DNA from: a virus
Taxonomy: Duplodnaviria > Caudoviricetes
Reading direction: 5' to 3' (one strand)
DNA length: 64,000 bases
Virus record (IMG/VR): IMGVR_UViG_2931642416_000001
Location: 1 to 64,000 of that record
The position numbers and the translations under genes are program-made. Below are positions 11,101 to 61,439 of this stretch, in pieces (within the stretch, counting starts at the first letter, position 1; each line of letters begins with the position of its first letter). The notes below the pieces were generated by a model that saw only the letters and a program-made list of their open reading frames with translations, did no database searches and was not told where the DNA came from.

Positions 11101-11363
11101 TGGACACGCTGGAGCAGATCGCCGCGTTCCTGAACACCGCCTCGGGCGGCACGTGGCTCCTCGCCGGTGGTGTGATCACGGTCCTCCTCACGGTCGCCGC
11201 TGTGGCGTGGATGTTCCGCCGCTCCCTCCCTGTGGAGGAGATGGCGGACCCGGCCTACAACCCGGGCCTGGACCGCCACCAGAGGGTCCTGCGCGAGGTG
11301 TTCCGCGGCGAGGCTGAGCGTTACCCGGTCGACCTCCACGACGTGTTCGAGGAGGACCGGTGA
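11097..11363 (+). CDS. Small membrane protein
   Basis: Single hydrophobic helix. Confidence 0.55.
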   Translation: MMDTLEQIAAFLNTASGGTWLLAGGVITVLLTVAAVAWMFRRSLPVEEMADPAYNPGLDRHQRVLREVFRGEAERYPVDLHDVFEEDR

Positions 11364-11671
11364 GGAGCGCGCGTCTGACCGACAAGGCTGGCAGCGGGAA
11401 CGGATGGCGGCAGCGCGCTGCCTGCCGAGACGTTGACCCAGTCCTGTTCTTCGGCCCCGCGGGCGAGAAGGCCGTCTCTGCCTACATCCGCGAGACGGAA
11501 GCGGTCGCATTCTGTAACGCCAACTGCCCCGTCATCAGCCAGTGCCTGGAGTGGGCTCTCCAGCTCGGCGAAGCCGGCGTGTGGGGCGCCACCACGGAGG
11601 ACGAGCGCAAGGCCCTCAAGCGGCGCCAGCAGCGGGCCGCGCTTCGTGCCGCGGCGAAGGCCGCCACCTAA
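11360..11671 (+). CDS. whiB: WhiB-family transcription factor
   Basis: WRQRAACRDVDPVLFF, four Cys, GVWGATTEDER. Confidence 0.9.
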   Translation: MRSARLTDKAGSGNGWRQRAACRDVDPVLFFGPAGEKAVSAYIRETEAVAFCNANCPVISQCLEWALQLGEAGVWGATTEDERKALKRRQQRAALRAAAKAAT

Positions 11672-11699: not shown

Positions 11700-12116
11700 A
11701 TGGGTTCACGTAAACCGCAGGACTACAGCCCCGACGAGTTCGACTCCGTCGTGGAGATGATCCGCAAGGATGCGTCGCTACGCGCGGACATCGAGGCCAT
11801 CACCGGGCAGACGGTCTACGGCAAGACGCCCCGCGAGCTGTTCAACCTCTTCCGCACGATCGAGAAGACGACGGCCGTGCAAGCCGCGGTCGTGAACTAC
11901 GGCCGCGCACGCCAAGCCGTCCGAGAGACCCGAGCCATGCTCGCTGAAGGGTCGCTCGAAGACCTGGCCCCGGCCGACCCGGCGCTGCGCCGTATCCAGG
12001 ACCTGGAAGCGAAGGTCGACGAGCTCAAGAGCACCAACAGCCGGCTGAAGGAGACCAATAAGGCCCTCATGTCCGGCAAGCCGATCAGCGTCATCAAGGG
12101 AGAGGTGGCCTCGTGA
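11700..12116 (+). CDS. Hypothetical protein with C-terminal coiled coil, coupled to the Cas7-like gene
   Basis: AAGGA RBS; GTGA overlap with 12113. Confidence 0.65.
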   Translation: MGSRKPQDYSPDEFDSVVEMIRKDASLRADIEAITGQTVYGKTPRELFNLFRTIEKTTAVQAAVVNYGRARQAVRETRAMLAEGSLEDLAPADPALRRIQDLEAKVDELKSTNSRLKETNKALMSGKPISVIKGEVAS

Positions 12117-12826
12117 GCGCCGTCGACATCTTCGGTACCGCGTCCAGCGTCGCCATCTACCGGGTGCGGCTGCAGGTCCTGGACAAGATCGTGGGCGGGG
12201 TGCCGTCCAGCCCGTCGGTCATCAAGGGTTGGCTGAAGACCCGCATGGAGCTGGGCGACCGGGATCTGCAGGAGCTCACGCAGAAGACGCTGACCGAGCG
12301 GTTCCAGGACCGTCAGCCGTCCGCTGACGAGCTGGCCGACGCGCTGCTGGAATCCGATGCGGCTCCGTCCGTCAACGGGTTCAAGCGCATCCCCGACACG
12401 GGCGAGCTCGCCTACGAGGGACGGTGCATGAAGGCCGCGCTGAAGGAGTTCATGAACTCCGCCTACCCGGGCGTGGAGTGGCCTGGGAAGTCCGCGGTGT
12501 CGAAGGGCTTCCGCAAGGGGCTGATGTCGACGGCGGCCGAGCGCGTGTTCGTCGAGGACATCTACATCGGTCTCGGCGTGAAGGAGCCGACCGGGGTCGA
12601 GGAGCGGATCAAGCACGTGATGACCCCGCAGGGGCCGCGCAGTTCGATCAACCGCGTCGAGTACGTCGACAGGCCGCTGCTGGAGTTCACCCTGAAGGTC
12701 CACGACGACTTCCTGCCGGCCGAGGCGTGGGGCCGCATCTGGGAGCGCGGCGAGGACATCGGCGTCGGCTCAGACCGTGGTCGTTCCGACGGCAAGTTCG
12801 AGCTGGTCTCGTGGGAGCGGATCTGA
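12113..12826 (+). CDS. Stand-alone Cas7/RAMP-superfamily protein
   Basis: RAMP hallmarks: N-terminal strand YRVRLQVLDKIVGG, YEGRCMKAALKE (cf. PGSSLKGALR) and C-terminal Gly-rich loop GEDIGVGSDRGRSDGKFEL. Confidence 0.75.
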   Translation: MSAVDIFGTASSVAIYRVRLQVLDKIVGGVPSSPSVIKGWLKTRMELGDRDLQELTQKTLTERFQDRQPSADELADALLESDAAPSVNGFKRIPDTGELAYEGRCMKAALKEFMNSAYPGVEWPGKSAVSKGFRKGLMSTAAERVFVEDIYIGLGVKEPTGVEERIKHVMTPQGPRSSINRVEYVDRPLLEFTLKVHDDFLPAEAWGRIWERGEDIGVGSDRGRSDGKFELVSWERI

Positions 12827-13239
12827 CATGGCTCTCCTGCACTGCGACGCCGCGCTCGTGGATGCGGCTAGCCCACCCTTGTGCGACAAGCCCAGCCCCG
12901 CCTCACGCACGCCAAGCCACACCGACACCTCGTGCCTAGCCACGCTCCCGCCGACCCGGCCCGCTTCGACGAGCCTCGCCCGCCCGAGCCGTGCACCGCG
13001 TCTGGCCGTACCGACACGCCACGTCACATCTACCCGCTCCACACCCACCCGACATGCCATACCTGGCCGCGCCGTACGCATCCCGACAACCCGACCCTTC
13101 CCCTGTCAGGCCGCCACCGACTTGCCATCCCAGATCTAGCCGGGGGCGACAATCCGGGGCCGCTCCGACCCGTGCAGCGACATGCCACTCCGTTGCCTGT
13201 CCTGACGAGCCGACGGGCCAGACCTGATCTGAGCTCGAC
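12825..13239 (+). repeat. Non-coding array of about 11 (C)GAC-anchored units made of NN(R)CC pentamers; putative guide-RNA array
   Basis: GAC anchors at 12846, 12885, 12924, 12968, 13013, 13051, 13085, 13119, 13148, 13179, 13212 and 13237. Example unit: GAC-acgcc-acgtc-acatc-taccc-gctcc-acacc-caccc-GAC. Transcribed strand is not established. Confidence 0.78.
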
Positions 13240-13259
13240 GCCGGCATAGCGAACGACGA

Positions 13260-13288
13260 AGGGCCGCCCGCACCGGGCGGGCGGCCCT
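13260..13288. terminator. Perfect 12-bp GC hairpin closing the pentamer array
   Basis: AGGGCCGCCCGC-accgg-GCGGGCGGCCCT. Confidence 0.7.
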
Positions 13289-13323
13289 GACAACTAGCAG
13301 ACACGAGAGGAGGGGCAGGCGTC

Positions 13324-13503
13324 ATGACCCCCGAGGAGATGTACGCCGCGGTCGACGCCCGCCGGCAGGAGTTGGACCTGCCTTGGTGGCGGATCGCTAT
13401 CCAGCTCCAGTGCACGTCCGATCAGGTGCGGTGGATGAGGCGCGGCCACGTGTCGAAGCCGTTGCGGGCCCGCGTCGAGGCGTGGCTGGGGGAGGCGTCG
13501 TGA
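13324..13503 (+). CDS. Small HTH-like protein
   Basis: GAGGAGG RBS; MTPEEMYAAVDARRQELDLPWWRIAIQLQ. Confidence 0.55.
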   Translation: MTPEEMYAAVDARRQELDLPWWRIAIQLQCTSDQVRWMRRGHVSKPLRARVEAWLGEAS

Positions 13504-13508
13504 AGACG

Positions 13509-13697
13509 TCAGGAGTCGGCCGACTCCGTCGGAGCCTTGGGCGGGCGGGGAAGCTTGGCGCCTCGCTCGCCCACGTACCAGCGAAGGAACTCGCGGATCA
13601 CGGCGGAACGGTTGCGGTCGCCCACGATCGCGCCGAAGGCAGCCCACAGCTCGTCATCAACCCGGATGGGGCGGTGTCGCGTGTGGGTGTCTTTCAC
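13509..13697 (-). CDS. Ribbon-helix-helix (CopG/ParG-like) regulator
   Basis: RHRPIRVDDELWAAF...RSAVIREFLRWYV. Confidence 0.7.
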   Translation of the reverse strand: MKDTHTRHRPIRVDDELWAAFGAIVGDRNRSAVIREFLRWYVGERGAKLPRPPKAPTESADS

Positions 13698-13711
13698 GAG
13701 GTCAATGGTAG

Positions 13712-13785
13712 GCGCTGTATATACAGCGCTGCTCAGCGCAAGGTTGCCGTGTATATCCACACCCGCTATCGTCGTGTATATCCAC
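13712..13785. promoter_or_regulatory. Operator-like palindrome and direct repeats
   Basis: Perfect 18-bp palindrome GCGCTGTATATACAGCGC (13712-13729); CGTGTATATCCAC twice (13748, 13773). Confidence 0.65.
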
Positions 13786-13847
13786 GCCAAGGGCAAGTGC
13801 CCTGGCAGATAGGCGTTTGTTCACGCGAGACCGGGGGTCTATTTCGC

Positions 13848-56630: not shown

Positions 56631-57419
56631 TCAGGGCTGTACGCGCTCGATCTCGATGGCCAGCACGCCGAGCGCTTCCTTCTCTGGCCCGTAGATGCGG
56701 CGAATGTTGGCGAGCTGCTGCTCACGCGAGGAGTCGGGATTCACGCGCTCCGGCCCCTCGGTGTCGAGCAGTTCCTCGAAGCTGTCGTAGACCGCAACCC
56801 GTACGACCTTGGTCAGGCACTCATCACCGTCGCATCGGAACAGGATGCGCTGCCCAGCGGCGAGGTCGCGCAGGTTCGAGTAGAGGACCCGGACCTCGAC
56901 GGACTTGCGGCCAGCAGAGACCAGATCGAAGTAGGGGCGGTAGAGGTTCATGTCGCGTGCCGGGGTCTCCCTGCGCTGCCAGCCATCGAGGCTGAAGGCG
57001 TCGCCGCGCTGGTAGGCGCCAAGGCCGGCGCGGATGTAGGAGACGACGTCGCCAGGCAGATCGTCCAGGGGGAACCATTCGATCTTGTCGCACTTGCTCG
57101 GTTCGGCATTCACCGGTTCCCCACCCCATCGGCTCGTGGCGAAGAAGACGCCGATGCGGGCCTGGCCGTCGGGGTCGGCGTGGTGGCAGACGCCGGCGAA
57201 GTCGAGGTCTGCGGGGTTGATGTCGATGCCCAGCTCCTCGCGAGCCTCCCGTGCGGCCCCCTCAGGTAGGGTCTCGCCGGCGTCGAGGCAGCCCCCCGGG
57301 ACGGACCAGAGGCCGTCGGCGAACCCCGTGTTGGCTCGCAGCAACAGCAGGACCTTGTCCCCCTCGATGAGGATCAGGTGGACGCCGACGTGGGGCCGGA
57401 ACGGTTCAGGTGTGGACAT
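56631..57419 (-). CDS. NUDIX hydrolase fused to ASCH (PUA-like) domain
   Basis: Nudix box GGCLDAGETLPEGAAREAREELG; ASCH MNLYRPYFDLVSAGRKSVEVR. Confidence 0.85.
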   Translation of the reverse strand: MSTPEPFRPHVGVHLILIEGDKVLLLLRANTGFADGLWSVPGGCLDAGETLPEGAAREAREELGIDINPADLDFAGVCHHADPDGQARIGVFFATSRWGGEPVNAEPSKCDKIEWFPLDDLPGDVVSYIRAGLGAYQRGDAFSLDGWQRRETPARDMNLYRPYFDLVSAGRKSVEVRVLYSNLRDLAAGQRILFRCDGDECLTKVVRVAVYDSFEELLDTEGPERVNPDSSREQQLANIRRIYGPEKEALGVLAIEIERVQP

Positions 57420-57506
57420 GGCCGTGCTCCCCGTGGTGGCGATGAGTCGTGGGTGTCACGCTACGCGGCCACACGGGGAGCACGGGGTCTGTTTGCCGGG
57501 ATGGAT

Positions 57507-58190
57507 CTAGACGTCGCTGCCGGGCAGCTGGGCGCTGGCCATCGCGTGGACCATGGCGGCGAGGTGGTCGGCGAGCTGCTCCGGCGTGCGGTTGTCGGTG
57601 TGCAGGTGGTAGGCGGTGGAGTCAGTGTCGGCGATCTGGTCGTAGTGGTCCTGCAGCCGTCGCAGCAGGGCGCGGTCGGCGATGAGGTCGCGATCGGATG
57701 CGGTCTGGTCGGGTTTGCCGGTCATCCGCGCGGTCAGCTCGTCCAGGTCGGTGTGCAGGTAGACGGTCAGGTCCGGCTGGGCCAGGTAGCCGACGAAGGG
57801 CGCGATGGTCGCGACGACGGTGCCATTGTCGAGGCCGTGGACGGCGGAGTGGTTGGCTATAACGGAGTTGATGTAGCGGTCGGCGACGGCATGCCCGGTC
57901 TCCAGGGACTGGCGGGCCAGGTCGGAGGCGTGTAGCGCCCCGGCGAGGTAGAAGGCCAGCTGCGGTAGCGCCTGGGCGTGGGCGTTGATGTACGGCTGCA
58001 GATCAGAGACTGGGGCGGGCACCGTGTGGAAGGCACGGCAGTCCAGCCGTTCGGCGAGGTGTCGGGCGAGGGTGGACTTGCCGGATCCGCTGATGCCCTC
58101 CAGGACCACGAAGATGCCCGATCGTGCTGTCTTGGCCGGCTGGTAGGCGGCGGGCAGCTGGTTGCTGATGCCGGGGGCGATGATGGTCAT
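57507..58190 (-). CDS. Thymidylate kinase-like nucleotide kinase
   Basis: FVVLEGISGSGKST, ADRY..S, PDLTVYL. Confidence 0.82.
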   Translation of the reverse strand: MTIIAPGISNQLPAAYQPAKTARSGIFVVLEGISGSGKSTLARHLAERLDCRAFHTVPAPVSDLQPYINAHAQALPQLAFYLAGALHASDLARQSLETGHAVADRYINSVIANHSAVHGLDNGTVVATIAPFVGYLAQPDLTVYLHTDLDELTARMTGKPDQTASDRDLIADRALLRRLQDHYDQIADTDSTAYHLHTDNRTPEQLADHLAAMVHAMASAQLPGSDV

Positions 58191-59218
58191 CAGAGGGTCC
58201 CTTCGGTGAAGGCGTCCAGGTGGGCGGAGACGGCCGCCAGCAGGCCGGCCGGGTCTTGTGCGTACGGGGTGACGTCCAGGCGGAGGTCGGGGCGAAGTAG
58301 ACACGGGCTGAGCTCGCCGGCCGAATCCAGGCGCAGCGCCCAGAACCCCTCGATGCACTGCGCTCGCTTGGGGCAGGTGGTGCACTGGCCGACGTGGTGG
58401 CGGCCGAGGGAGGCGTCGATGACCTCGATCGTCATTGGTCCGCGCTGGCCGGGGACGTTGAAAACGTGGCGCCCCTGTCCCGTACCGGAGGTGACGACCT
58501 CCCCGCTGGTGGCGATCGAGCGCAGGTAGGCGGTGATGTCCCCGGAGGGGACCTTGGCGCTCAGCTGGTTGTGGTCGGTGTCGACCAGCTCGATGATCTG
58601 CAAGCTGGTGCCGAGCTCGCGCGCGTAGGCGATGATGTCCATCACCTCGTGCGCGTTCTGCTCCTGCAGCAGCAGGTTCAGCTCGACGATCGGGATTACC
58701 TCGATGGCGGCCTCGATCCCGGCCTTGATCTTGGCGATGTCGCCCGGCTTGCCTTCCGCGATGGCGGCGATGGAGGCGTCGGAGAAGTAATGCAAGCTGA
58801 CCTTGATCCGGTCGAGTGCGGTGGCGGCCAGCCAGTCGAGGTCCTTGGTGAGGGTGAGCCCGTTGGTGATGAGCGTGGTGGTGTAGTCGCTCATGTCGTG
58901 TGCGGGCAGGCCCTGCAGGATCGGGCGGGCCAGCGGGGACAGCAGCGGTTCGCCACCGGTGAAGAAGACGCGGCGGATCCCGGCGGCGGTCATCGCGTTG
59001 ATCGCGGTCAAGAAGTCGTCGGCTCCCATCGCCCGCCGACGGGGCTGGATGGTCCGGTCGTGGTGGGTGATCCGGGGCGGGATCTCTCCTTCGTTGTGGC
59101 AGAACCAGCACCCGAGCTGGCAGCGGGGAGTGAGAGAGACTCGCAGCTGGCCGCCGCGGCGGGCGAAGTCGCCGCCCAATGGCGCCGCAGTGGGGAAGCC
59201 GAGCGCGGTCGGTGGCAT
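58190..59218 (-). CDS. MoaA-like radical SAM protein
   Basis: LRVSLTPRCQLGCWFCHNEG, FTGGEPLL, ITNG; C-terminal CTTC...C...LRLDSAGELSPCL. Confidence 0.85.
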   Translation of the reverse strand: MPPTALGFPTAAPLGGDFARRGGQLRVSLTPRCQLGCWFCHNEGEIPPRITHHDRTIQPRRRAMGADDFLTAINAMTAAGIRRVFFTGGEPLLSPLARPILQGLPAHDMSDYTTTLITNGLTLTKDLDWLAATALDRIKVSLHYFSDASIAAIAEGKPGDIAKIKAGIEAAIEVIPIVELNLLLQEQNAHEVMDIIAYARELGTSLQIIELVDTDHNQLSAKVPSGDITAYLRSIATSGEVVTSGTGQGRHVFNVPGQRGPMTIEVIDASLGRHHVGQCTTCPKRAQCIEGFWALRLDSAGELSPCLLRPDLRLDVTPYAQDPAGLLAAVSAHLDAFTEGTL

Positions 59219-59297
59219 GATGCCTCCTCTGGTCCGGTGTGACTCCAGAAAGCCCCGAACCGGTGCCCCATGCAGGCGCGCTTGCATAGGTCGGCAA

Positions 59298-59320
59298 CGG
59301 TTTGCATGTACTGCAAACCG
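59298..59320. promoter_or_regulatory. Inverted repeat operator between the radical SAM operon and the XRE regulator
   Basis: CGGTTTGCA-tgtac-TGCAAACCG. Confidence 0.6.
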
Positions 59321-59382
59321 GCGTGCCTCCAAGGCGTTGGCCAGCTACGGTGAAGCGGGGACTCTCTTCTGTGGAGCAGCCG

Positions 59383-60672
59383 ATGACACTGCGTCACGCT
59401 GGCGAGATCGTAAGAGCAGCTCGACAGGCCAAGGGCATGACGCTGGCCGATCTTGGCCGGTTGACGGGGTATTCCGCCTCTCAGGTCTCTCGCCTGGAGC
59501 GCGGAATCGTGCCCCTGACCGACACGGTGGTGCTGCGTAGTTTTGCTTCCGCGTTGGGATTGTCGCCAAGGGCGGTTGGGCTTCTCCCCGACGCCGGCGT
59601 CCACGCCGCGACGGATCACGCTGTTACACGCCGCCATGCTGCGGATACATTACGTGGTGGGAGTCATGACGACGAGGGGACCGATCCGATGCGGCGTCGC
59701 ACACTGCTCACAGCAGCCGGACTGAGCATCCCGCTGTCCCTACTCCAACGCCTGGACGACGCCCTGGCGGTGCCGCCGCAACCGGACGGCATGGCCGAGC
59801 CGGCACAGATCGCCCAACGGCTACGGTCAGCGCGCCACCAGTTCGACGCTGCCGAACTGGCCGCCCTTGTAGCGGCCCTGCCCGGACTGCTCGCCTCAGC
59901 GCGAGAAGCAGCCGAACGGGCCGACAACCCGGCAGGGTGGGCGCTGGTCTCGGCGAGCTACAACCTCGCCACCGACACCCTCAACAAGATCGGCAACAAG
60001 TCGTCCGCCCGGCTCACCGCGGACCGAGCGATGCTGTACGCCGACCGGTCACAGGACCCCGTCGCCAAGGCGGCCTCGGCGCGCGCACTGGGCATGATGC
60101 TGCGCACCCAAGGCCGCCCCGACCTCGCCACCGCCGTCATGACCAACGGCATCGACCAACTGGCGACGACCGGACACCAGACGACTGCCCAAGCCAGCAT
60201 GTACCTGCGGCTGCTGTGCGCCCGCGCCTACACCTACGCCTGGGCCGGAGACCGGCAGCGAGCCCTCGACGGCATCGCCGAGGCCGAGCAGGCAGCCGGC
60301 CGGATCCCGGCAATGAAGCCCACTGCCTTGCCGTTCGCGACGCTCTACCGCGTCGACATCCACTACGCGCTCGGCGATGCCGGCGCAGCCGTGCACGCCG
60401 CTCGGGACCTGCGAGACGAGATGTACCCGACGCCCGAGCGGCGCGGGCGTCTCCACACTGACCTCGCCCGCGCCTACTGGCGGTGGGGCAGGCCCGAACA
60501 GACCGCGGCCGAGCTGTTGGCGGCGTACCGGCACGCGCCGGCGGAGGTGCGGGATAGGCCGTCAATCCGGCGGATCGCGGCCGAGGTGGTGGAGCGCCAC
60601 CCGTGCGTCGCTGGTGTGCGCCAGCTCGCCACGGCGATTGCCCGCCCTCCCGCTATGCCCGCCGCCATCTGA
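59383..60672 (+). CDS. XRE-family regulator with helical (TPR-like) C-terminal domain
   Basis: RAARQAKGMTLADLGRLTGYSASQVSRLERG; MRRRTLL; APAEVRDRP. Confidence 0.85.
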   Translation: MTLRHAGEIVRAARQAKGMTLADLGRLTGYSASQVSRLERGIVPLTDTVVLRSFASALGLSPRAVGLLPDAGVHAATDHAVTRRHAADTLRGGSHDDEGTDPMRRRTLLTAAGLSIPLSLLQRLDDALAVPPQPDGMAEPAQIAQRLRSARHQFDAAELAALVAALPGLLASAREAAERADNPAGWALVSASYNLATDTLNKIGNKSSARLTADRAMLYADRSQDPVAKAASARALGMMLRTQGRPDLATAVMTNGIDQLATTGHQTTAQASMYLRLLCARAYTYAWAGDRQRALDGIAEAEQAAGRIPAMKPTALPFATLYRVDIHYALGDAGAAVHAARDLRDEMYPTPERRGRLHTDLARAYWRWGRPEQTAAELLAAYRHAPAEVRDRPSIRRIAAEVVERHPCVAGVRQLATAIARPPAMPAAI

Positions 60673-60743
60673 CTGGCCTTCGGCAACGAGAAGCCCCCGC
60701 CCGGTCCTCGCGGATCGGGCAGGGGCTGCTTCGCGTTGTACGG

Positions 60744-61340
60744 CTACTGTTCGCGGTATCCCTCGCTCGTGAGGTCGACGCGCCGGTTGTGAAGGTAGCT
60801 CTCGACCTCGCCCGGGTCGGAGAACGAGCGGATGTCCTTGTCGCTGATGCCGTCCACCGTGAAATCCTCGGTCACCTCGTTGCCGTTGACAGTGATGGTG
60901 ATCGTGTCCGTGCCCCAATCGGGCTTGTCGTTCTCGCGAGTGAAGGTGATCGTGCGCGGGGCCATGGTGACGATGCGGGTCGGCCACCCGGCTACCTCGG
61001 CCTCTCCCTCGATGACGTACAGCAGTTCGTCGTCGCTGTCGCCGTAGCCCTGCTCCGTTGCCCATGTCTGCGCGTCAGCGGGGAGGTCGTGCCAGGTGAT
61101 GGTCGACTCGGCGAGTTCGGTTGCGCCCTCCGGCATCCGGTCGCCAGACGTGGCAGAGATGAGGGTGTACGTGGTCACGGTGGACTCCTGGGGGATGAGG
61201 TCGATGGGGACGATGGCTGCGACTCGGCGGCCGTGCCGGGTGATGTAGGTGATCTGTCCGGCGTACTCTGCGCGGTTCACCAGGTCCCCGAACTTGGCGC
61301 GTCCTTCGCGGAGGCCGATCTCGTTCTCGCTCACATCCAT
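60744..61340 (-). CDS. Phd/YefM antitoxin-like N-terminus fused to an unknown domain
   Basis: IGLREGRAKFGDLVNRAEY...ITRHGRRVAAIVP; palindromic TTGTGTACACAA upstream (61359-61370). Confidence 0.7.
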   Translation of the reverse strand: MDVSENEIGLREGRAKFGDLVNRAEYAGQITYITRHGRRVAAIVPIDLIPQESTVTTYTLISATSGDRMPEGATELAESTITWHDLPADAQTWATEQGYGDSDDELLYVIEGEAEVAGWPTRIVTMAPRTITFTRENDKPDWGTDTITITVNGNEVTEDFTVDGISDKDIRSFSDPGEVESYLHNRRVDLTSEGYREQ

Positions 61341-61439
61341 GAGAGTACACAGTTTGCATTGTGTACACAATAGGCTTTGGTCTGGGAAAACGAGAGGCTC
61401 GCCCCAAGCAGGGCGAGCCCCATGTGTCGTACGGCTAGC

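Follow-up and report, generated by a model that had tools for sequence, protein, structure and literature searches.

The prophage locus described here lies in the first 64,000 bases (hereafter the window) of IMGVR_UViG_2931642416_000001, a 72,873-nt (72.9-kb) provirus record, and we consider it to be a VIPR (Viral Interference Programmable Repeat) system with a probability of about 0.85. VIPR systems are a class of gapped-code RNA-guided DNA binders that is only months old, and type II is the only one that has been tested at the bench. The locus combines a gene for a 237-aa protein with the hallmarks of the RAMP family and, right behind the stop codon, a C-rich stretch of DNA with a period of five nucleotides. 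In our reading the gene (12113-12826) would encode a divergent one-domain RAMP, or Vipr, and 12846-13259 would give rise to the guide RNA or RNAs. As published, VIPR systems consist of a solo ancestral RAMP (Vipr) and of guide RNAs (vrRNAs) made of 9-16 GGY/NN repeats and a structured 3' tail; DNA is recognized with one skipped base per repeat, and rival phages and satellites are silenced (10.64898/2026.04.26.720920). A preliminary description of the locus had presented it as a candidate new system while pointing to a resemblance to VIPR. The claim of novelty does not stand, since this kind of system is already described (bioRxiv 2026). The resemblance does stand: VIPR is in print, and the tested Vipr family is a homologue of the window family at the profile level.

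The 237-aa open reading frame (ORF) contains YEGRCMKAALKE and carries the C-terminal loop GVGSDRGRSDGKF, as the preliminary description had stated. No Pfam or PHROG family was matched by this protein. Its AlphaFold2 model, built on a 72-sequence alignment (pLDDT 91.3, pTM 0.84), assigns it to the Cas7/Csm3-type RAMPs. Indeed, Foldseek returned 157 matches in the PDB at E <=0.001, Csm3 chains being first (E 2.5e-7), and the exhaustive VIA-align comparison over 48,161 chains gave Csm3 9g9a_D as the best match (Z 11.0, root-mean-square deviation 4.0, 156 aligned residues), with a CRISPR RAMP subunit at every one of ranks 1-22. The RAMP fold expected by the preliminary description is thus borne out by both structural comparisons. 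A profile search of the PDB with the family found nothing beyond an alignment to the Csm4 G-loop (E 0.21). Across the 72 family members, the C-terminal motif GxGxxR..GxF, which is the RAMP G-loop, is nearly invariant, and R222 is fully invariant.

The link to the bench-tested systems comes from the Vipr of Escherichia phage SUSP1, whose locus was taken from KT454805.2. The SUSP1 protein has 195 aa and a C-terminal end that reads GVGDWRPRFGRF, and four GGY-NN tracts lie on the strand of its gene. When the 72 members of the window family were aligned with 38 members of the SUSP1 family using hhalign, the probability was 95.5% (E 1.4e-8, 129 columns), and the alignment spans helix 1 to the G-loop. 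According to the text of the preprint on the Vipr filament, each repeat takes one protomer and each helical turn takes six; H17 and D177 read G1, R138 and W178 read G2, and Y3 of GGY sits in a pocket formed by helix 1 and R179, with R179 stacking on the pyrimidine (bioRxiv 10.64898/2026.04.26.720927). R222 of the window protein aligns with R179, and the two G readers D177 and W178 are not conserved in the window family. Simple profile-to-sequence searches failed to connect the two families, and the window family is therefore a distant clade.

The DNA behind the gene is strongly patterned. In 12827-13288 (C 206, G 122, A 76 and T 58 of 462 nt), identity at lag 5 is 0.427, versus 0.25-0.33 at lags 1-4 and 6-9. 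The periodicity score of the array is 0.138, a value reached by none of 1000 shuffles (top shuffle 0.070), which confirms the patterned non-coding DNA seen earlier. When 1,272 sliding 400-nt segments covering the whole window were ranked by 5-nt periodicity, the top 12 all began at 12601-13151, and the highest score was 0.143 against a mean of -0.017 (standard deviation 0.026); the array is the sole 5-nt-periodic stretch of the window. Tandem Repeats Finder reported nothing for the array because the repeats are too degenerate. Exact RCC-NN runs are limited in the window array to one of 4 units at 13056 (NN-GGY on the other strand), and they reach up to 15 units in the arrays of relatives. In Rfam, the window gave just sub-threshold chance matches and 8 related loci had none that reached the gathering score, hence no hammerhead or other known RNA lies between the units.

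The periodic tract might in principle be read as a protein. An ATG at 12829 opens a frame of 103 codons, rich in P, S, T and R, within the listed ORF 12777-13139, and an ATGG just past the vipr stop recurs in several loci. We regard this explanation as practically negligible: a reading frame cannot keep a 5-nt period, stop codons are scarce on the C-rich strand because of its composition, and the frame relative to the conserved hairpin described below is not kept in L015, L007 and L006 as judged by eye. Moreover, the 430 nt behind the RAMP gene hold no coding-like ORF, and in 12827-13323 there is no ORF of at least 90 aa with coding-like G+C content at the third and second codon positions.

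To describe the repeat, 47 units were chosen in 10 loci by their GAC boundaries and a length of 5n+3 alone, so that their 237 internal pentamers were picked without reference to CC. On the gene strand, the information per pentamer position was 0.22, 0.73, 1.74, 0.04 and 0.03 bits, position 3 being C in 97% and position 2 a pyrimidine in 89%. Like the repeat of vrRNAs, the pentamer thus combines three fixed positions with two free ones; its fixed triplet reads N-Y-C (mostly GCC) on the gene strand and G-R-N on the opposite strand. Read along the gene strand, the units start as GAC-(A/T)N and go on as xCC-NN; in full, a unit reads GAC-NN, then 5-7 xCC-NN pentamers, then xCC, and neighbouring units are offset by 3-4 nt. 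GAC-to-GAC spacings of at least 18 nt fall mainly in the classes 5n+3 (49) and 5n+4 (40), against 11 for 5n+1 and 8 for 5n+2. The rule is clearest in L006, where the successive spacings are 33, 33, 33, 33, 38, 33 and 43. The distal third of the window array (~13148-13259) is degenerate. One stretch, 13116-13186, is common to L002 (+638-710, 81% over 73 nt) and L009 (+387-423), at 81-83% identity, and corresponds to two to three units in the otherwise different arrays of three prophages. These shared units suggest a conserved guide and hint at a common target. A separate observation concerns L006:4885-4945 (Streptosporangium), where one unit holds ten identical GCCAA pentamers inside 15/15 in-phase CC units; this run looks like slippage that happened recently, or else like a guide to a poly-(AAx) site.

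The gene and the array are linked across relatives. A 5-periodic stretch stands right after the homologous gene in 9/9 related loci from bacterial genomes, and the layout of the window is repeated in phage Mae-JY09 (34% identity) and in the more distant L073, so that homologues do have the adjacent periodic array that the preliminary description had predicted. The genes downstream of the array differ among relatives. A rival explanation is that the tract acts as DNA, in the form of protein-binding sites, an origin-like or curved region or a slippage-prone repeat, next to a RAMP-like protein that does something else. The tract lies 1.2 kb upstream of the genes for a replication initiator and a DnaB helicase, and the ten identical GCCAA units of L006 do look like slippage. 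However, all relatives examined have the tract behind the RAMP gene whereas just 2/9 have a DnaB match nearby, two free and three fixed positions out of five is exactly the pattern of vrRNAs, and the protein is homologous to a Vipr whose RNA binding has been tested. We therefore judge a role as DNA to be very improbable.

The locus belongs to a well-populated divergent Vipr clade. The protein has 350 close relatives, all labelled 'hypothetical', and the full scan gave 693 representative clusters at E <=0.001; its nearest Atlas clusters are 96-100% viral. In IMG/VR, the relatives came from viral records in 10/10 cases (8 proviruses and 2 linear). The relatives that carry names are from Nonomuraea, Streptosporangium, Microbispora, Actinomadura and kin. 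Genome sampling gave matches in 1/401 genomes at the level of the phylum (the centre itself) and in 11/401 at the level of the order. Among 50,697 isolated-phage records, only one has a clade protein, namely Mae-JY09 (L074, PP395641.1, 37713-38976), which is filed as a Microcystis phage and whose array is rich in C+G and actinophage-like in style. Single-protein searches for distant lower-GC relatives yielded one useful locus, L073. Two further candidate relatives were rejected as false positives; they are efflux-pump genes that share the word VGFKRDEN.

The surroundings are those of a siphovirus-type provirus, with window genes for an integrase, an antirepressor, capsid, cement, tail-tube and Dit proteins, an amidase, a WhiB-like regulator, the replication initiator and the DnaB helicase, and the prophage is of Streptosporangiaceae type. 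The absence of cas genes and of a repeat-spacer array noted earlier was confirmed: Pfam found no cas domain in 50 coding-like window ORFs or in 9 gene neighbours, and the window has no direct-repeat family whose copies, spaced by at most 120 nt, number more than 2. The features of the locus are collected in Table 1.

Table 1. Features of the candidate VIPR locus (window coordinates).
Feature	Position	Strand	Basis
Partner gene, 138 aa, all-helical	11700..12116	+	Conserved N-terminal domain and coiled coil; upstream homologues
vipr-like gene, single-domain RAMP (Cas7-like), 237 aa	12113..12826	+	GTG start; G-loop GVGSDRGRSDGKF; model and profile homology
Conserved small hairpin GAC-GCCGC(loop)GCGGC-TAGCC, gene-proximal array end	12846..12873	+	Conserved in related loci
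Array of ~11 contiguous short units, putative vrRNA precursor	12885..13259	+	5-nt periodicity; GAC-NN then xCC-NN pentamers
Perfect 12-bp G+C-rich hairpin closing the array	13260..13288	.	Fold; like hairpin in L009

Compared with known systems, the locus is closest to type II VIPR, as found in Escherichia phage SUSP1 and a Pseudomonas fulva prophage. In both, the RAMP stands alone, has one domain and carries a G-loop, and the repeat is 5 nt long with three positions fixed and two free. Both also sit in a phage or prophage, with a small accessory gene and with neither cas genes nor a CRISPR array. Several differences are nevertheless clear. The window protein has 237 aa versus 195 aa in SUSP1, and its model has extra helices at around residues 34-79; the triplet is N-Y-C (gene strand) or G-R-N (other strand), not GGY; ~11 contiguous units of 5-8 repeats replace the separate vrRNAs of ~100 nt, which have 9-16 repeats and their own tails; the window clade has one small conserved hairpin at the gene-proximal end; and the accessory gene stands upstream of vipr, overlaps it and lacks a recognizable DNA-binding fold. 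Other forms come nearer in some of these respects. The text of the discovery preprint describes seven types, with NNNGG, YNNNG and NNNNG repeats and with staggered and ribozyme-separated arrays (10.64898/2026.04.26.720920). Tail-less contiguous arrays and departures from GGY have been reported, and GAC-NN is among the non-canonical cores named in a further preprint (10.64898/2026.10.21.760802). The xCC/GCC core, the 5n+3 rule, the protein clade and the host family are not named in the text of these preprints, figures and supplements aside. The best structural matches of the protein are Csm3/Cmr4 of type III, Cas7 of type VII and Csf2 of type IV, with which it shares an RRM core, a thumb-like hairpin and a G-rich loop. 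In contrast to these CRISPR backbone subunits, to which sequence identity is 9-18%, it has no partner cas genes or repeat-spacer array, and the period is 5 nt and not 6 nt. Judged by the preprint text, this divergent, so far uncharacterised Vipr clade has an array architecture of its own.

Which strand would be the guide is less clear than what the locus is, and we lean towards RNA from the gene strand. In SUSP1, for which small-RNA sequencing is reported in the discovery preprint (10.64898/2026.04.26.720920), the vrRNA strand has G in 79%, G in 92% and Y in 93% at the three fixed positions, so that position 1 is the weakest. The same order, with a weak position 1 and a pyrimidine at position 3, recurs here on the gene strand alone, and this favours that strand. 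The protein points in the same direction because the residue that holds the pyrimidine (R179/R222) is invariant while D177 and W178 are not kept. Non-canonical cores have been reported in 21 clusters (GAC, CAC, WGT and TGH; 10.64898/2026.10.21.760802), and all of these, as listed in the text of that source, keep a non-purine at position 3; GAC opens every unit here, which again speaks for the gene strand.

The hairpins also bear on this question. The small element at the start of the array has the general form GAC-GCCGN-loop-N'CGGC-TAGCC on the gene strand and was found by pattern in 18/20 loci, L020 having it further downstream and L021 a variant; in ten IMG/VR loci a first pattern had placed it at the array start in 8. 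Its 14 distinct versions show covariation of the fifth pair (UA 8, CG 4, GC 1). The sixth pair reads G-U in 10/13 and A-U in 1/13 on the gene strand, and since such a pair (11/13 versions) works on that strand alone, the gene strand is favoured. Taken by itself, the small hairpin of the window folds no better than shuffles (z 0.08 and 0.46). At the other end, the perfect hairpin described earlier at 13260-13288 was confirmed, with 12 pairs, -29.9 kcal/mol, a z of -5.2 and 0/200 shuffles as good, and it is a probable terminator. That the window, Mae-JY09 and others have a hairpin after the array and none before it is a further reason to prefer the gene strand; in Mae-JY09, 63/66 genes are on the strand of the vipr-like gene. 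L009 has a similar hairpin at the matching place, then, on the minus strand, GTTTTCG and a minus-strand gene, and in this locus the distal hairpin terminates the next gene, on the minus strand. It leaves only ~30 nt up to the first unit, thus little room for a minus-strand promoter, which also favours the gene strand.

By analogy with SUSP1, Vipr protomers would line up on the RNA with one protomer per 5-nt repeat, each of them holding the fixed triplet and exposing the two variable bases, and the exposed bases together would read double-stranded DNA, passing over one base at each repeat. The preliminary description had proposed that the subunits grip the constant part of each pentamer and present its variable bases, which agrees with the mechanism given in the text of the published work. 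In the window and in other loci that have no hairpin between gene and array, the guide would be transcribed as the 3' part of the partner-vipr transcript and would end at the hairpin 13260-13288. The fixed triplet N-Y-C, mostly GCC, would take the place of GGY. Each offset unit might then form its own short filament of about one helical turn, or might be excised as a separate short guide. The likely output, again by analogy, would be transcriptional silencing of a rival, whether a phage, a prophage or a satellite, a role that we take from the published systems. In its full form this proposal is a mirrored code, in which a C-rich gene-strand guide is the tail of the vipr mRNA and is divided into one-turn mini-guides (GAC-NN and 5-7 repeats) that are 3-4 nt out of register with each other. 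We advance it tentatively and give it slightly less than an even chance.

Several results weigh against our main reading, a VIPR system guided by gene-strand RNA, and they concern the homology, the form of the units, the transcription and the strand. The family profile found no match in the SUSP1 genome at E <=10, a single sequence against a profile, for the window and SUSP1 families, reached a probability of 15.8%, and the best cross-family profile-to-sequence score was 18.8 bits. Since profile-to-sequence searches fail, the homology to VIPR rests on one profile-profile comparison together with the fold. In the window array, just 2 of ~11 units have the exact 5n+3 length, and the units, with 5-8 repeats and no tails of their own, are shorter than the published 9-16 repeats. 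A strong hairpin separates the coding genes from the array in L002, L005 (=L016), L014, L015, L017 and L018, and also in L020, after an extra ORF, and in the distant L073; the array in those loci would therefore need its own promoter. A consensus promoter was found on neither strand: the sigma-70 and terminator consensus scan gave 0 sites, and relaxed promoter scoring at both array ends gave nothing consistent, the best match being cTGACt-N18/19-GAACGT, which lies ahead of the hairpin in L014, L017 and L020, loci that are closely related. As to the strand, the complement of the array, G-R-N/NN, fits the canonical GGY/NN and the NNNGG class as set out in the discovery preprint (10.64898/2026.04.26.720920), and the conserved hairpin would be a 3' tail, as in the published systems, if the complement strand were the RNA.

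The last two points lead to an alternative in which the locus is still a VIPR system, and the guide comes from the strand opposite vipr: GG(Y)-NN repeats would be transcribed toward the gene, with the conserved hairpin as a single 3' tail and the end at the vipr junction. The search rule of the discovery preprint asks for at least 4 YNNGG units, and the reverse complement of the array satisfies the YNNGG/NNNGG rule as worded in its text (10.64898/2026.04.26.720920). Published vrRNAs carry a conserved structured 3' tail, and the sole conserved element of the array would be 3' on that strand. Moreover, several related loci have a strong hairpin within ~45 nt past the conserved element, the minus-strand flank of the junction hairpin (TACGCGTTTC) is richer in T than its plus-strand flank, and in L020 this hairpin stays, together with a 45-nt spacer, with the array rather than with vipr. 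In L020, vipr is separated from the junction hairpin by an additional ORF of ~96 aa (L020:3230-3520). We hold this alternative to be less likely, at roughly half the probability of a gene-strand guide. On the opposite strand the pentamer reads G (97%), R (89%), N, NN, and its third position is a pyrimidine in just 60%, even though the pyrimidine-holding residue is the one that is conserved; the order of conservation is reversed relative to SUSP1. No promoter was seen at the distal end, where L009 has little room for one. In Mae-JY09, such a guide would be one of very few minus-strand transcripts and would run against the early operon, and the sixth pair of the small hairpin would be A-C in 10/13 versions. 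A hairpin between gene and array is, in addition, not evidence for the opposite strand, since SUSP1, as read from its sequence, has a terminator-like hairpin between vap1 and the downstream vrRNAs of the same strand. A guide from the gene strand thus remains our preference.

Targets were sought with 145 distinct parsed guides of 6-13 NN in 820 kb of sequence (eleven related proviruses and seven loci). The mean number of mismatches was 2.82 with one skipped base, versus 2.97, 2.94 and 2.92 with skips of 0, 2 and 3, and versus 2.83 for guides in shuffled order, the guides being too short and the library too small for a clear difference. When neighbouring units were joined with any gap, no target outlier emerged from the 820 kb. 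Within these limits, the absence of a one-base-skip signal is a point against our reading. A unit specifies 12-16 bases, and the guides of the window at most 14, so exact-pattern scans of larger collections would be expected to give thousands of chance matches.

The partner gene might be part of the same module. Its stop codon and the GTG start codon of the RAMP gene lie in a 4-nt overlap, a homologue stands directly upstream of the RAMP gene in 8/9 genome loci, and 16 aligned orthologues have a mean column identity of 53%. The model of its product has four helices (pLDDT 80) and resembles just generic helical hairpins in Foldseek; the protein had no Pfam match above cut-off, no PHROG and no Foldseek match in the PDB at E <=0.001. 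We consider it a candidate for a vap-like accessory gene that is specific to the clade. Immediately upstream of this gene and vipr lies a gene for a WhiB-family regulator (11360-11671, Pfam E 4e-20), and a WhiB gene is upstream of the module in 6/9 related genome loci; it may control the module or belong to it.

On the downstream side, 13324-13796 holds a 59-aa plus-strand ORF with a good ribosome-binding site, convergent with a 95-aa minus-strand gene for an Arc-like repressor (PHROG 6506 match, E 5e-4). The hairpin 13260-13288 could also be a terminator for the repressor transcript, after antisense passage through the 59-aa ORF. An Endonuclease VII gene is present 1 kb downstream in the window and was seen in just 1/9 relatives. 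At the far end of the prophage, the minus strand of 56634-61370 carries a cargo-like block with NUDIX-ASCH, radical SAM and weak Phd/YefM antitoxin-domain proteins.

To conclude, the meaning of this locus for the VIPR class depends on which bases its protein holds. If these are GG, the array would be convergent and the locus a VIPR of the ordinary sort. If they are CC, Vipr would have a more adaptable base-reading pocket than has been shown to date. Were the mirrored code true, one transcript would carry about ten independent addresses of 12-16 nt, with no promoters, tails or ribozymes between them, and such arrays of 33-nt mini-guides would represent a very compact multiplexing of programmable repression in high-GC actinomycetes.

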